Positions 4,090 through 56,790 of a stretch of 64,000 nucleotides of DNA are shown piece by piece. The stretch comes from Octopus vulgaris. Its lineage: Eukaryota. The notes under the pieces are model-generated. The model made no database searches. It was not told where the DNA came from and was given only the letters and a program-made list of their open reading frames with translations. The position numbers and the translations under genes were made by a program. Positions within the stretch are counted from its first letter, which is position 1, and the number at the start of each line of letters is the position of its first letter. Location: NCBI GenBank assembly GCA_951406725.2, contig OX597825.1, forward strand, positions 18,290,001-18,354,000, in the 5' to 3' direction.

Positions 4090-4278
4090 TAGGGAGAGTT
4101 TACGAAAAAAAACAAATGACGAAGACAGGTGGGGTACAAAACAAACAGATGTATTAGTATAACGCTCAGGAATAGAAAAAGTCTTTTACGTTTCGAGCCT
4201 ACGCTCTTCTACAGAAAGTGACACAGAAAATAACAAGGAGAGAAAAAATGTGTGTAGTGGCTAACGATCTATCATGGC
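4090..4278 (-). mobile_element. Family D short non-autonomous repeat (Penelope pLTR-like) inside a (TATG)n microsatellite
   Basis: ~190-bp unit repeated at 15851, 32567, 52381 and 56687; carries a hammerhead-like motif; microsatellite on both flanks. Confidence 0.75.
4183..4218 (-). ncRNA. Minimal type I hammerhead-like motif, non-canonical core (family D copy 1)
   Basis: CTTT-CTGTAGA-A-GAGC(GTAG)GCTC-GAAAC-GTA-AAAG. Confidence 0.55.
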
Positions 4279-4767
4279 GTCTGTATGTATGTATATATGA
4301 TATGTATGTATGTGTGTATGTATGTATGCATGTATGTATGTATGTATTTGTGTGTGTGTGTATGTATATTTATATGTATGTATGTATGTATGTATGTATG
4401 TATGTATGGTTCGGGAAAAATGTCCTTAGGTGTATATTCATCATACTGAATATCTATATTGAAACGGTAATATCTGATGTGTAAAATATAGTGAATTATA
4501 AATTGACTGTAAGGCACGAGATACTTCAAGCAGATAGAACGGAAAGTTCATTTGGAGCTTGTTTAAAATCTAAACACACATTGAACATACATAAACATAT
4601 ACAAGCCTACATACATATATACATACATACATACATACATATATATATAAGCACACATACATACATAAACACATTAATACATACATACACACGTACGCAC
4701 ATATATATATATATATATATATACATATACATACCTACATACATACATTCAACAGAAGAAGGATAAA

Positions 4768-4880
4768 AGAAGAAGAAGAAGAAGAAGAAGAAGAAGAAGA
4801 AGAAGAAGAAGAAGAAGAAGAAGAAGAAGAAGAAGAACAACAACAACAACAACAACAACAACAATCACAACAACAACAAG
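4768..4880 (+). repeat. Compound (GAA)n(CAA)n microsatellite
   Basis: Read directly. Confidence 0.95.
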
Positions 4881-5514
4881 AAACTGATAATGTATTGGAT
4901 TTTGTTACGAATATAAATAATGATGCCAAATAGTAGTTCTCAATATTCCCCATGGTGCATGCTACTATGGTAGGGCCTCATTTAGAAGCACTCTTTTTGT
5001 GCTAATGTATGCAGACAACTATTCAAATATATTTCTATGTTATTTGCCTATTTTCTAATATAGAATTATTCTACACATTATGAAGTTGTTAAGTGTGAAT
5101 GAGTGAATATGTCAGCTCTGATATAGTCGTCGTTCTGATAGGCAAACCATCCGAGTCTCCATGAAATCATATTATAAACTCCTTTGATTCAGATTTGTTA
5201 CATTGTTCAGAAAATTTTTTTTTTAATGGGATGATCTCAGATACAAATCATTTGACATTTGGTCCACTCAGGACTTATCCTGGTCCAAACAACAACAACA
5301 ACAACAACTAATGTCTGAAACCTGTATGAGTAATGATTCTAAAAGGTGACAATTGCCTTAAAAGTGCATCTATATTCGAGGAGTTAATGAAGGAAGCAAA
5401 TTCACACGGATTGTCTTTGAGCAGCAATCTAATTTCTTTAAAACATGTTCAAACTCTATAAAAAATGCTGGCGGAATTGGACAATTTGGTAGTAGGAATA
5501 TTGGCTTAAAATTT

Positions 5515-5908
5515 TGGCACAAGACCAGCAACTCTCTCAATCCCAGTACTCAACTGATACTTATTTTATCAAACTCGAATGAATGAAAGTTAAAGTTACC
5601 TTCGGCAGAATTTGAACTTAGAATGTAAAGACGAACGAAATACTGCTAAGCATTTTGCTCAGCATGCTAACAGTTCTTGTTTCTTTACTGCCCACAAGGG
5701 GCTATCCACAGAGGGGACAAACAAGGACAGACAAACGGATTTAGTCGATTATATCGGCCCCAGTGCGTAACTGGTACTTATTTAATCAACCCCGGAAGGA
5801 TGAAAGGCAAAGTTGACCTCTTAGGAATTTGAACTCAGAACGTAACGACAGACGAAATACGGCTACGCGTTACGCCCGACGTGCTAACGTTTCTGCCAGT
5901 TCACTGCT
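5515..5908 (-). mobile_element. SINE family B tandem dimer (younger unit joined to an older unit)
   Basis: Two consecutive B bodies with a junction near 5677. Confidence 0.8.
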
Positions 5909-7259
5909 TTAATCGTAGCAATGTTGTGAAGAGAATTAATGAGAAAATGGTGTATCTTCGAAGAGGTTTGGCCATATGTTTATTTGAACAAAGCTAACCT
6001 GAGGCTAATCAACAAATGAACAACAATAACAATAAAGTGTGATTAAGCGATTCAGAAGCAAGTTCAAGTTATGCGAAAAGAAAATAACTGAAACCCACTT
6101 TATAGTCTATTGGTATTACGAAAGAATATATTGTTCGATGCAATCTTCGCAGTAACGTATTCGGTTATTCTTTTTTAATATATACCGTTGCAGGCCAGAA
6201 TAATCCCACACTAATTTATTTTAGCTCTACGTTAAATGCAGAAAACCAACGGGATCTTACTCGTAATCAAGACTAACAAAATTTGGAACATTTCAGAAAA
6301 GTAAGAACTATTTTGTATTAAAAAACAAGATGATCTATTTGACAGTCGCAGACTTACACTTTTGATAAGAAGCAATGCCTGTTATCAGAATTCAGCTGCT
6401 GTCTTTCGCTTAGGCTACAAGCATCTATTATAGTGCATGTGTTACGATGTTGGTACATTTATGTGTGTGTATATGTGTGTAAATGTATATAAGATTTTTA
6501 TGTATATGTATATAATATATATATATATATATATATAATGTATATAAAGCGTGTGTGTGCGTATGTGTGTTTATAAAGCAATACATATAGATATTGATAT
6601 AAAAGTTGGCACACTGGCAGAATCACAAGAGCATCACAAAATATTTAGCGGCGTTTCTTCCGGTGCTTTACGTATATATCTTATGTTTGGGGTCAAAAAA
6701 TTGCTGAATATATTACTACTAATATTTTAGCCGGCAGGAAACTTAACAAGTAGGGAATTTCCAATCAATAAATATGACTGATAAAGAAAAAAAAGGTAAT
6801 ATATATTAATGTAAAAAGAAGTGAGATTGAACGAATGATAACAACAAAATAAATGTGGAAGAGAAGACAGAAGAAAGAAGAGAATAGTTCAAGAAATGTC
6901 AAGAAACGGAAAGAAGAGGGAAACAGCAATTATAAAATTCAAGGTTAAAGTGCACAAAAGTGGGAGAATTGGTTTAGTATCCTCCAAGAAGGAAACGTGT
7001 CATTATTTTACGAATATTACGGTCTAATTTGCAGCTATACCGTGGTCAGCTTTGTTTTTATCACTCCAGGTTCTGTAAATAAAGTACCACTTGGTTTCTG
7101 AAATGGAGGTTATCGATTCTGTCGCCCTCAAATATGCCGCCTTGTGCAAATAGTCACTAATCAATAAAAAGGCTTCATTGATATAGCTGTGGCGAGAATA
7201 CAATGTGTAATAATTCATCGTGATTTTAAGCACAATGCGAGCACTTCCAAGGTGAAGTG

Positions 7260-54034: not shown

Positions 54035-54325
54035 CGAGGCAGTAGTTAGGATTTTGCTCTCACGATCACGCGATAGTGGTTTCAATTCCTCGACTGAGTG
54101 GTGCGTTGTGTTCTTTAGCAAAATACTTCATTTCACATTACTCTGCGATCGTTTCGACACCCGACGCGTGGTACACCGGACAACTGTCCAGGCAACGTCG
54201 ATTTGATAGACAGAGTTGTGCTCAAGTACAACACATATATCGGATCATTATAAAGAAATCATTTGTGCAGGTCTTTCGGCAAAAGTTGAAAACTCATTTG
54301 TCGTCTTCATGGGAGAGTCCATCAT
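54035..54325 (+). mobile_element. SINE family C-related copy with a different 3' half
   Basis: gtttcaattcc..ggtgcgttgtgttctttagcaaaatacttcatttcac shared with 14011-14266. Confidence 0.6.
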
Positions 54326-55274
54326 ATATATAAAGAGAGAGAGAGGTGTATGTGTGTGCATGTGTATATACGATGGGCTTCCTTCAGTTTCTGTCAACCT
54401 AATCAACTCACTCAACTCACAAGTGTTTAGTCGGATAGAGGCCAAACTGTAAGACACCTGCTCAAGGTGTCATGCAGTGAAACTAATTTTTTAATTGTCA
54501 TTGGACTGCGGTAATTCTAAGGCACATATATACATGCGTACATATATATATATATATATATACACACATACTTGTGTATATGTTTGTATAGGGGATATAT
54601 CACAGAAAGAAAATTCCGTTAACGCGCAAGTAATTTAGGAATTGGTTTAGCGTCTTATTTGAAGATATGATTATATTGCCGATAAATTAAAATGATTTGT
54701 CATACAGACATATATCCATCGATATGACGGGTGATAACAATTCCATCGATCAAATCCAGTACATAAAACTATGTACACATACTCAGCTTCCGTGAGAAGG
54801 AAACACGAAGTTTTCTTTGGTCGGATTTGAACGTACGACGTTAATGCTCTTAGTCACGAATGTCACGATTTCAATGTTTATCCTCTGAGAGGATATTAGA
54901 TTAAAGCTTACTCAGAATAAATCAAATGTACTTGGGATATACTTGCTGTGCTGTGTTGGTGGGAAGCTATGAGGTTATCTAAGTATAACACATTATTATA
55001 TGAAAGCAAAATTCATTATTATATAAAAGTATCTTCCAAAAGTCATTTCGCTTGCTAAATTGGGAAACAGAATATACATCACATGATTTAATTATCCGTT
55101 GTCACCAGAGGGGTACATTTTGCATATATACATATATGCGTATACATATATATATATATATATATATATATATATATATATATATATATATATGTATACA
55201 CACACACGTACATATATATATATATATATATATATATATATATATATATATATATATATATTCAGGCGTATGTT

Positions 55275-55655
55275 CTTTCATTTGTTTCAATCATGTTGGA
55301 CACACTGATGAAGAGTTTTAGATTCGAATTGACATTAGTTCTTATTTTAAAACCTAATCCTTATTGTACCGGTCTCTATTGCTGAACCTGTAAATTACGT
55401 GGACATTAACACACCAACAACGGTTCTCAAGTGGCAATGGAGGAACAAACAGATACAAAGCACACACACACACACACGCACACACACACATGGATATACC
55501 ACAACCTTTTTTCAGTTTCCGACCAAATTCATTGACATGTCTTTGGTTGACCCGCAGCTATAGTAGAAGGTACATGCCGGTGGTGGCTTGCAGTGGGACT
55601 GAACCCTGAATCATTTCGCAGAGAAGCAAGTTTCTTACCACATAGTATCTCCTGC
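55275..55655 (-). mobile_element. Degenerate SINE family A
   Basis: Diverged collinear blocks; similar remnants at 28305-29230, 49775-50095, 50330-50475 and 54365-54480. Confidence 0.6.
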
Positions 55656-56686
55656 ACCCCCGCTTCTTACACGAGAGAAAGCGAGTGAAAGAGATAGAGA
55701 ATGAGAGAAAGAAAGAAAGAAAGAAAGAAAGAAAGAAAGAAAGAGAACAATGATACTTAGACACTTAGGAAGGTTAACTGATATATATATTTCGACTCTC
55801 CTCTCACTTTATATAGAAGAAGAAACCGGCTGTAAAAGGAAGGTGTATTCACGCTTGCATTCCGTAATTACTTTTGCAGAAGAAACATTTCCTTTAAAAA
55901 TTTTTCGTCCCGTGAGACCTTTCTTGAAAACCACAGCGCGTAAATGATAAAAAGGTCAATGTTACTAGGAGAGTAGCTATTAAATAAATGGCGTGATCCG
56001 AACCACACACACCTATACCGCCATCAACCTCATCATTACTTTATCTAGATGCCTTCAGACTAATGTTTTACGCAGTAAGACTTTCTATTTGACACACTGT
56101 TACAAACTCTGATAAAAACAAGAATATTTTGACAACTATAACACTCATATATTTTATTGTAGTAGTAGTAGTAGAAGTAGTAGTAGTAGTAGTAGAAGTA
56201 GTAGTAGTAGTAGTAGTAGTAATGGTGGTGGTGTTGGTGATATTGCTACTGTTGCTGGTTATAATTATGAGTAACTACTTATCTTCAGAGTAAACTCTGA
56301 GCATCTTGAAGGTCAAATGTAGCCCAGTCTTCCCCCCCCCCGTTACATTTCGCCGCTAATTAATCTAGCACCTCATCATCTAAAGCCTTTTCCTCCTCCT
56401 CCTTCCCTCCTTTACTTTTTTTTTCTACTGCTTCTTTTATTTCTTTTTCCCTCCACTGCTTCTTCTTTTCGTCGTTTCTTTCTTCATCTTGTACTGCTCC
56501 TACTTCTTACTGCAGCCGACGAGCGTCTCGCAATGCTGCGACAGAAATCTCTAACCACCACCGTAAAGCCCTACTCTCATTAGCATTGGAAGTTCTTCCC
56601 ATCATTTTATATGAACAAACTCTGATATTGGGGAAGTTTAGCAACCCAACAGCGACAGCGGCAGCAGTAGGTGTATGAAGAAGAAG

Positions 56687-56790
56687 CAGGTGTATTAGTT
56701 TGACGGGAAAGTGAGAAAGACTTTTACATTTCGAGCGTATGCTCTCCAACAGAAAGGAATAAGAGAAAATAAACAGAGAGAGAATAAAAA
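56687..56790 (-). mobile_element. Family D repeat, diverged copy 5 (motif at 56721-56756)
   Basis: Minus strand CTTT-CTGTTGG-A-GAGC(ATAC)GCTC-GAAAT-GTA-AAAG. Confidence 0.6.

Follow-up and report, generated by a model that had tools for sequence, protein, structure and literature searches.

A hammerhead motif with U in place of core A6, carried by tens of thousands of Neptune-type repeats in Octopus vulgaris, likely retains only slow or protein-assisted cleavage

Introduction

Hammerhead ribozymes are nearly universal in Penelope-like elements (PLEs), are weak in vitro, and are dispensable in the sole system that has been reconstituted. Judging from its title, a 2017 paper by Lünse, Weinberg, and Breaker reportedly dealt with small variant hammerheads that act in dimeric form. 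A first-pass annotation of a 64-kb stretch of O. vulgaris DNA (the window) described five dispersed copies of a hammerhead-like motif with U at the normally invariant core position A6. It took the motif either for a natural A6U variant that a dimeric ribozyme tolerates or for a family that lost catalysis, amplified, and kept the fold as a signal for retrotransposition.

Results

All five copies in the 64-kb window were confirmed at the coordinates and on the strands first assigned to them. Each forms the middle of a longer repeat of 130 to 210 bp that lies between (TA)n/(TACA)n tracts.

4092 to 4282, minus strand: copy 1 repeat, 5'-truncated 3' end of a Neptune-type element, between microsatellites; S4 from its tree position, 93% to locus L006 over 210 nt
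4183 to 4218, minus strand: copy 1 U6 minimal hammerhead motif; U6 at 4211, N7 = A, A17 at 4187, with the putative cleavage point after A17
15850 to 16001, plus strand: copy 2 repeat, element 3' end, S4 (trees), 90% to L006
15876 to 15911, plus strand: copy 2 U6 motif; U6 at 15883, N7 = A, N17 at 15907
32566 to 32772, minus strand: copy 3 repeat, element 3' end, S5, 88% to the 3' end of the intact element L097 over 225 nt; the nearest of the five to intact elements
32665 to 32700, minus strand: copy 3 U6 motif; U6 at 32693, N7 = C, N17 at 32669
52383 to 52550, plus strand: copy 4 repeat, element 3' end, S3 (trees), 86% to L034
52422 to 52457, plus strand: copy 4 U6 motif; U6 at 52429, N7 = G, U17 at 52453
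56669 to 56799, minus strand: copy 5 repeat, a decayed element 3' end with an S0-like flank, the oldest type among the subfamilies, 87% to L315 over 135 nt; left out of the trees because it failed the flank filter
56721 to 56756, minus strand: copy 5 U6 motif; U6 at 56749, N7 = T, N17 at 56725

The individual bases had been read accurately: copies 1 to 5 have A, A, C, G, and T, respectively, at position 7, T stands at position 6 in all five, base 17 is A or T (as A/U, also in the source elements), copy 2 has a helix II mismatch, and copy 5 has A9G and GAAAT. The proposed AAAG end of the consensus holds overall and fails in copy 2, which ends AAAT and has lost the outer helix I pair; the proposed ACGT helix III palindrome is present in all eight subfamily majorities (described below) and is lost in copy 5, which reads ATGT. 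The loop ATAC (copy 5) and the G-U pair in helix II (copy 4) had been cited as evidence. They do not serve as such, since these two changes, the copy 2 mismatch, and A9G are each private to one copy and represent decay rather than covariation; all eight majorities have loop GTAG, helix II GAGC/GCTC, and A9.1.

No remnant of an element open reading frame (ORF) was found in the 64-kb window. The copies lie 4 to 20 kb apart in mixed orientation, an arrangement that provides no argument for dimers among them, and the repeat search of the window was dominated by microsatellites. An Rfam scan of the window gave 355 matches, of which the best 150 included no hammerhead, only microsatellite-driven microRNA matches, and there was no gathering-score match in four loci, one of which carries the published canonical Acropora digitifera motif. 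Because that canonical motif is missed too, we conclude that Rfam is blind to minimal PLE hammerheads.

Across the genome, a 25-mer with positions 6 and 7 left free had 18,333 exact matches, compared with none for the reversed control, and the motif is therefore not a product of chance. A6 was found in only 226 of the 18,333 matches and U6 in 95 of the 100 that were listed; as the first-pass annotation supposed, U6 is family-wide, and the motif is carried by tens of thousands of repeats in the O. vulgaris genome. The cleavage site lies inside each genomic copy. Retrozymes are nonautonomous tandems of 150- to 450-bp monomers, each with a hammerhead and without an ORF; this identity was rejected, since the copies are dispersed solo ends or the ends of ORF-bearing elements.

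The autonomous partner that had been predicted, a Neptune element with the same terminus, does exist, as copies of about 4.5 kb with a frame of about 1,000 amino acids that encodes reverse transcriptase (RT) and GIY-YIG domains. The U6 motif was present at the 3' end in 20 of 20 long-ORF copies fetched, and also at the 5' end in 12 of the 20; around 50 long-ORF loci, T6 was found in 71 of 71 distinct motifs (67 identical). The motif lies about 115 nt before the element 3' end and occurs in both pseudo-long terminal repeats (pseudo-LTRs) of intact copies; in L097, which was read base by base, the ATG follows the 5' motif by about 750 nt. The 1,075-amino-acid frame of L097 has RVT_1 above the cut-off at residues 454 to 643 and GIY-YIG below the cut-off at residues 874 to 907 (E = 0.0065). 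Its endonuclease region reads IYCISCSLC..LYIG with two His downstream, which is the Neptune CCHH feature, and the long frames contain a C-X4-C-X2-C RT-endonuclease linker and a DKG motif. Pseudo-LTRs arise from partial tandems (L097), and insertion is into (TA)n (flanks of 30 loci). The Neptune-type element with the U6 motif is intact and apparently still active. A genome search with the GIY-YIG Pfam model led to a different PLE family, with a 781-amino-acid protein and a U3-A8 hammerhead, which is not the partner. The motif stretch was also seen in assembled run contigs, which carry no information on RNA ends, under six organism labels (not taken as six species); no run recorded as RNA was among those listed, and position 7 was not among the listed differences.

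The octopus element agrees with the Neptune clade as Craig et al. (2021, PMC8557442) describe it: the RT has DKG and YIDD motifs, the linker is CX2-5CxxC, the C-terminal GIY-YIG domain carries CCHH, the pseudo-LTRs stand in partial tandem, and the targets are (TA)n. That linker is ascribed there to both Neptune and Nematis; by eye, the protein rows are closest to Neptune1_Ap and much closer to it than to the Nematis rows. Unlike Neptune as described in that account, the octopus element has a noncanonical hammerhead core and a long pyrimidine-rich 3' untranslated region. The family was not found in the supplement of that paper (PMC8557442), where the octopus entries are Naiad and Hydra. Close protein relatives carry the published Neptune hammerhead: the A. 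digitifera Neptune motif lies letter for letter behind relatives L347, L352, and L386.

The nearest known motifs are the minimal hammerheads (min-HHRs) of metazoan PLE pseudo-LTRs, especially that of A. digitifera Neptune (Cervera and De la Peña 2014, PMC4209133). As presented in that report, they share with the octopus motif a short helix I, an extra base between 9 and 10.1, G10.1-C11.1, a 4-bp helix II, a loopless palindromic 15.1-16.1, H17, a place in both pseudo-LTRs, and mostly solitary copies, and the original assignment to a minimal type I hammerhead fold from a PLE is supported. In contrast to the octopus U6, all 56 motifs of its Fig. S3 have A6 (the descriptor used there required A6), and the core variant known among min-HHRs is U3-A8. 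An A6U variant was not found in the literature searched, and the alignments of Lünse et al. (2017), which lay outside that coverage, are the main gap for any claim of novelty.

Flank-only trees of about 120 columns placed eight subfamilies, which were drawn by eye, on a single ladder of seven subfamily steps. Along this ladder, N7 passes through T>C>G>A>C>T (five changes) and N17 through A>T>A>T (three changes, A/U only), compared with no change at the other 33 motif positions and variation in 32 of 81 columns of the downstream flank (Fisher p = 1.3e-4). At the level of source elements, position 7 is thus far more variable than its neighbors, as had been anticipated, and copies that share a state at this position group together on the tree (20 changes versus 62 in shuffles; 0/200). 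In all eight majorities, core strand bases C3, U4, G5, G8, and A9 are canonical, position 6 is not A, and G12 A13 A14, A15.1-U16.1, and G10.1-C11.1 are invariant, with H at position 17; retained, therefore, are G8 and G12 (general acid/base), C3-G8, A9, A13, A14, and A15.1-U16.1. Invariance in all eight subfamilies extends to loop II and base 9.1, neither of which catalysis requires to be fixed. At flank-like rates, the probability of no change at 11 core bases is 0.004 to 0.024. G or C at position 17 was found in 183 copies only; the avoidance of G17 involves three changes, for which we estimate a chance probability of about 0.2 to 0.3. Helices I and II can pair in every subfamily, and the covariation expected within the family was absent, being seen only between the family and its relatives.

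Most copies were chosen by core pattern, which inflates core invariance. This sampling, together with subfamilies drawn by eye and short trees, would suit a reading without selection, in which U6 is a neutral accident and conservation reflects recent amplification and motif-based picking. However, old copies stand about 12% from their own subfamily majority, distances between the oldest and intact copies at 4-fold sites are 0.36 to 0.91, and the same core majority was obtained from the oldest-subfamily sample, in which only nine motif bases beyond helix I were fixed, and from a systematic 800-kb profile-search sample; a core-free pattern gave this core as well, although its sample and the 800-kb one are small. 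We consider an accident of this kind very improbable.

In other animals, 18 of 19 homologous elements carry A6, and relatives swap helix sequences wholesale while keeping the pairing. Across 15 rows that include relatives, 8 of 10 helix pairs change on both sides, a partly circular count in that the 8 outgroup rows were chosen by a helix-requiring script. Because these homologues have A6 and covarying helices, U6 is derived. The trees did not resolve the A6 copies within the octopus family as an ancestral clade (14 changes versus 13.7 in shuffles); all that remains of this idea is that bases other than T are in excess at position 6 in the oldest flank type. These relatives also bear on a constraint at the level of DNA or plain sequence, such as an internal promoter in the pseudo-LTR or an endonuclease or host-factor site, for which the match of N7 and N17 to the hammerhead would be coincidental, a legacy of hammerhead ancestry. 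The freezing of 33 other positions without compensatory change inside the family fits it, as does the nearly palindromic 36-mer, which satisfies a helix-only pattern on both strands, and PLE pseudo-LTRs are described as containing promoters (PMC6765202). It remains improbable in our judgment, since relatives keep pairing when whole helices change, and the two free positions out of 35 are both hammerhead-free ones, which is unlikely by chance.

Two related families were compared with the present one (family D). Among 100 listed copies of flank-related family E, 65 have U4C and 5 have G17. Convergence of A6U and U4C on one inhibitory helix was rejected, the probability of a G5-C15.2 pair being 0.02 in 22 C4 copies, and a search with the outgroup protein P0005 gave only the same young family, leaving family E with no ORF assigned to it. 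A generic pattern for a second U6 family gave 92 matches (control, 6), mostly decayed D copies or sporadic mutants of family F, which is canonical (A6 in 97 of 100 listed), and this candidate was also rejected.

In folding predictions, the mean probability of the G5-C15.2 pair was 0.75 in 78 U6 copies, compared with 0.14 in 12 natural A6 copies, and a closed rod was favored by U6 over A6 by 1.8 to 4.0 kcal/mol; the predicted effect of U6 is thus closure of the monomer as a rod that lacks activity. By nearest-neighbor calculation without tertiary contacts, the dimer of U6 copies lies above two closed rods (for example, -13.7 versus -20.4 kcal/mol). Folding of the monomer was no more stable than that of shuffles (z, -0.6 to 0.73). 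U7, which would extend the rod, was lost and then regained on the ladder, and rod stability has therefore not been held constant.

Discussion

The source elements changed only positions 7 and 17 and kept every other base critical to the hammerhead. Our preferred explanation, to which we give about an even chance, is that they exchanged A6 for U and kept spreading with a throttled, dimer- and protein-dependent ribozyme; cleavage by the U6 motif is likely slow or aided by protein. U6 would pair with A15.1 and close the monomer into a rod, hiding the ACGU dimer palindrome, so that the transcript would stay uncut while it serves as a template for reverse transcription, in keeping with genomic copies that span the cleavage site. 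Cutting would then require both the pairing of two copies and help from the protein that the element itself encodes, and cleavage of this slow and assisted kind, at a copy in tandem or upstream, may trim unit RNAs from read-through transcripts. A stronger version, which we regard as rather unlikely, treats A6U as a working core with a safety catch, where the monomer closes itself and the element protein, on a tandem transcript, would open and fire it.

Published activity data bear on both this explanation and its main competitor, a ribozyme that died with A6U and whose fold or closed rod was kept as a binding or positioning signal for the RT/endonuclease, N7 and N17 being free because they are bulged. 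In the saturation screen reported in PMC9901934, all single and double mutants of the CUGA turn had low activity without rescue, except for a C3-G8 swap, and at 0.3 mM A6C lowered the Mg2+ rate of one hammerhead from 0.3 per min to 3.55e-6 per min (PMC7151607). The Anolis Poseidon hammerhead is reported to cleave only with the element protein, and insertion in vitro did not need cleavage and gave no reads ending at the cleavage site (PMC11167929); Naiads are described as spreading without canonical hammerheads (PMC8557442). Minimal PLE hammerheads are given as weak already with A6 (PMC4209133), and a review states that PLE-associated hammerheads with a reduced stem III act as dimers (PMC6765202). 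Loss of activity is also compatible with the amplification of family E with U4C, the preference of U6 for the rod, and a loop II as frozen as the core, which would fit sequence-specific protein binding as well. Against it, the catalytic guanines, C3, and U16.1, which are unpaired in the rod, stayed unchanged over seven subfamily steps at the low probability given above, and only two positions are free, the very ones left open by hammerhead chemistry. Moreover, position 6 variants retain some activity: natural A6C cores are reported to cleave slowly, and better in Mn2+ (PMC3088659, PMC7151607). Weak, assisted cleavage is favored over a dead ribozyme kept as a signal, which we hold to be a substantial but lesser possibility; sequence alone cannot decide between them.

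The hammerhead of phage Bcep176 (Perreault 2011, PMC3088659; Naghdi 2020, PMC7151607) likewise has a single natural substitution at position 6. As reported, however, it is C in one phage sequence with measured activity (k < 0.1/min, Mn2+ preferred), whereas the octopus U is fixed in a lineage of more than 18,000 copies with intact elements and is known from sequence alone. The Anolis Poseidon element PAc (Frangieh 2024, PMC11167929) is similar in that its hammerhead lies upstream of the genomic-copy end and uncleaved RNA must be the template. According to that account, PAc belongs to another clade, has canonical C3 and G8 and protein-aided cleavage, and has an ORF that starts inside the motif, unlike the downstream ATG of the octopus element.

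Searches based on CUGANGA, as well as Rfam, miss whole high-copy families. If the safety-catch reading is true, the octopus core would be the first of its sort to have become fixed in a lineage of active animal retroelements, and one genome would preserve both the A6 state of the ancestor and the seven subfamily steps that followed. In conclusion, an intact and apparently active element has reached tens of thousands of copies despite a substitution expected to cripple cleavage, with the rest of the core frozen, and it amounts to a natural test of whether the spread of such elements depends on self-cutting. If U6 cleaves, A6U would be one more of the few core variants known in nature and would suggest ribozymes gated by protein; if it does not, the fold would be selected for something besides chemistry.

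Copies of the U6 motif

On re-reading of the sequence, the five family D motifs of the window had the coordinates and reading given in the first-pass annotation. Each sits inside a longer repeat of 130-210 bp that is bounded by (TA)n or (TACA)n tracts.

Features of the window
4183-4218, minus strand: family D motif
15876-15911, plus strand: family D motif
32665-32700, minus strand: family D motif
52421-52458, plus strand: family D motif
56721-56756, minus strand: family D motif
1383-1791, 10574-10985, 32159-32567, 36883-37299, 44311-44746, 52992-53438: ~430-bp dispersed repeat, copies 83-90% alike, SINE-like
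2000-2241, 5680-5913, 11157-11386, 31078-31311, 39716-40105, 47004-47424, 59419-60147: ~235-bp repeat, often as partial tandems or inverted pairs
61400-61718: ~54-bp minisatellite
3582-3681: 100-base N gap

Across the genome (2.80 Gb, 227 contigs), a 25-mer of the motif with positions 6 and 7 left free had 18,333 exact matches, and its reversed control had none in the same 227 contigs. Among the 100 matches listed, from the start of contig 1, a by-eye count gave T95, A3, C1, and G1 at position 6 and T43, A23, C20, and G14 at position 7; the A6 form of the 25-mer had 226 matches genome-wide (1.2%). A pattern that fixed just the helices and not the core matched 52,084 times, which corresponds to ~26,000 copies with intact helices because the nearly palindromic motif mostly matches twice per copy. 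G or C occupies position 17 in 183 copies (G in 48 of the 100 listed), about the background level. The family D U6 motif is real, and it is a variant of the known minimal PLE hammerhead; since it departs from the canonical core at position 6, it is kept apart from proven hammerhead ribozymes.

The carrier element

The end of a GIY-YIG endonuclease lay 700-900 nt upstream of the motif at three loci. A genome search with a 250-aa piece of this endonuclease returned at least 150 scored matches of 90-100% identity; many had the same score, and open frames ran to as many as 1,214 codons. In all 20 long-frame loci taken from these matches for closer reading, a U6 motif followed the endonuclease by ~800 nt; 12 of the 20 had a second, matching motif ~4.5 kb upstream, and at one further locus the upstream motif was of an older-subfamily type. 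The autonomous Neptune partner with the same terminus, which had been predicted, was thus found, and because the U6 motif is tied to long-frame PLE loci, the window copies are read as 5'-truncated ends of a Neptune-type Penelope-like element; a search within the window for an ORF remnant of the element found none.

Base-by-base reading of the intact locus L097 showed it to be a partial tandem that had inserted into (TA)n.

Layout of the element at L097, in order
Pseudo-LTR: end of ORF, pyrimidine-rich 3' UTR, motif, ~115-nt tail
5' UTR
1,075-aa frame
Second pseudo-LTR

The element protein matches RVT_1 above the cut-off and GIY-YIG below threshold, and it carries DKG, YIDD, a C-X4-C-X2-C linker, and the endonuclease cysteines, which are marks of Neptune/Nematis in the available text of PMC8557442. 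By eye, its rows are nearest Neptune1_Ap in the accessible part of that supplement. The carrier has the structural characters of Neptune, where it is provisionally placed by structure and by-eye likeness. Around 50 long-ORF loci, T6 was present in 71 of 71 distinct motifs, 67 of them identical, and this Neptune-type PLE appears to have been recently active with U6.

At loci L012/L013, L029, and L235, two family D ends lie inverted relative to each other with 130-150 bp between them, an arrangement already described for PLE insertions. A second young PLE family (loci L051, L056, and others) has open frames of 781 aa; its hammerhead, of the U3-A8 type, lies ~1 kb downstream of the endonuclease.

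A search of the literature on hammerhead core variants (A6U, U4C, A6C, and CUGUNGA-type) yielded no natural U6 core, although the alignments of Lünse et al. 2017 may contain such cores; the available passages of PMC6765202, PMC11014351, PMC12192606, and bioRxiv 10.64898/2026.07.22.740005 likewise contain none. Among the papers searched, only PMC8557442 linked hammerhead, Penelope, and octopus or cephalopod, and the octopus entries in its available parts are Naiad and Hydra. The novelty of the element is judged from papers, and repeat libraries (Repbase, Dfam) may already contain it.

Ancestry of U6

When 80 metagenome loci encoding protein relatives were scanned with a relaxed motif pattern, 19 motifs were recovered, with A in 18, G in 1, and U in none at position 6. 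In the closest relatives the motif lay 110-150 nt beyond the endonuclease; three relatives' motifs match the Acropora digitifera Neptune hammerhead in the accessible supplement of PMC4209133. A6 is present in all 56 motifs of a figure in that supplement, but the descriptor used there required A6. Family E had A6 in 98 of 100 listed copies and the control family F in 97 of 100. These comparisons indicate that U6 is the derived state in family D, and, to judge from its sequence, the motif derives from the minimal type I hammerheads in Neptune pseudo-LTRs and probably acts in a similar way.

In the oldest family D flank type (841 matches), position 6 was T80, C11, A8, and G1 in 100 listed copies; by comparison, three other T sites were non-T in 2 of 84 cells (28 such copies). 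Position 6 thus looks unsettled at the start of the lineage. An A6 clade was not resolved on the tree (14 changes versus 13.7 when shuffled).

Family E, which is related to family D by its flanks (loci L195-L219; 10,624 pattern matches genome-wide), has a 3-nt loop II and a helix I, GTTT/AAAC, compensatory to that of family D. Its U4C adds a further non-canonical U-turn change that has been amplified in this genome. Family F (loci L422-L433; 2,251 pattern matches) carries a minimal hammerhead with the canonical A6; its loop II region is 12 nt long, and position 7 is mostly T or A. An apparent chimera at L044:1430-1640 joins a family E upstream flank and A6 to a family D loop and downstream flank inside the hammerhead core.

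Conservation along the subfamily ladder

Two flank-only trees, of 100 of 130 copies and of 125 D plus 31 E out of 195 copies (the remainder failed the flank-identity filter), give a single ladder rooted by family E. By eye, 120 of the 125 D copies were split into eight subfamilies; copies of the oldest differ by 11.7% from their own majority and those of the youngest by 3.1%. In ladder order, the base at position 7 is T, T, C, G, A, C, T, T and the base at position 17 is A, A, A, T, A, A, A, T, and the other 33 positions of the 35-mer show no change. In the flanks, 32 of the 81 downstream columns and 16 of the 31 upstream ones vary, some of these changes being alignment noise in T-rich tracts (core versus downstream changes, Fisher p=1.3e-4). 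Four-fold sites of oldest-subfamily ORF remnants differ from the intact ORF by 0.36-0.91 (JC), including ~0.12 of later decay. Most sampled copies had been recovered with the core pattern, which inflates core invariance; three check samples (an 800-kb systematic sample by profile search with 31 matches including the window, a core-free listing, and an oldest-flank sample) agree on the same majority core plus CpG decay. That the motif is under no constraint is very improbable, and constraint at the DNA level is unlikely.

Copies that share a base at position 7 or at position 17 group together on the tree: position 7 needs 20 changes versus 62 when shuffled, and position 17 needs 10 versus 24.5 (0 of 200 shuffles as low in either case). 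The expected variability at position 7 was borne out, with five changes against none at the 33 other positions; the helix covariation expected with it was absent inside family D. The loop change, wobble, mismatch, and A9G of the first-pass annotation proved to be private mutations of single copies. When family D, family E, and eight outgroup motifs are compared, both sides have changed in 8 of 10 helix pairs, a partly circular count because the outgroups were chosen by pairing.

The five changes at position 7 are faster than neutral yardsticks (P 3e-5 to 4e-3, rates 0.34-1.0 per site). The cause could be selection on the single free base, or else a mutation hotspot there; none of the four readings (throttled ribozyme, dead fold, DNA-level constraint, no constraint) accounts for it.

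Predicted fold and function

In the computed fold, U6 can pair with A15.1, and the pairs U4-G16.2, G5-C15.2, and U6-A15.1 form a rod that masks the ACGU palindrome. This rod was the minimum-energy fold in 8 of 9 displayed U6 copies, the ninth folding as a near variant, and the mean computed probability of G5-C15.2 was 0.75 in 78 U6 copies versus 0.14 in 12 natural A6 copies.

In published work, minimal PLE hammerheads show no activity as monomers and little as dimers (PMC4209133), a saturation screen found low activity and no rescue for CUGA-turn mutants (PMC9901934), and a natural A6C hammerhead retains low activity that is much better in Mn2+ (PMC3088659, PMC7151607). The Anolis Poseidon hammerhead is described as cleaving only with the element's protein, the insertion template being uncleaved RNA (PMC11167929).

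In a reading of lower probability than the slow ribozyme described next, the chemistry is gone and the fold is retained as a protein signal: the invariance extends to loop II and base 9.1, family E spread while carrying U4C (65 of 100 listed) and some G17 (5 of 100 listed), and three changes at position 17 are too few to prove avoidance of G. The sequence, the computed fold, and the papers give about an even chance to a slow ribozyme with residual dimer- and protein-assisted cleavage. Genomic copies all span the cleavage site, so reverse transcription would require the 3' motif to remain uncut. A ribozyme that cuts more slowly would cost the element little and may help. Its residual assisted cleavage would explain the fixity of G8, G12, C3, A9, A13, A14, and U16.1, and would trim unit RNAs out of read-through transcripts.
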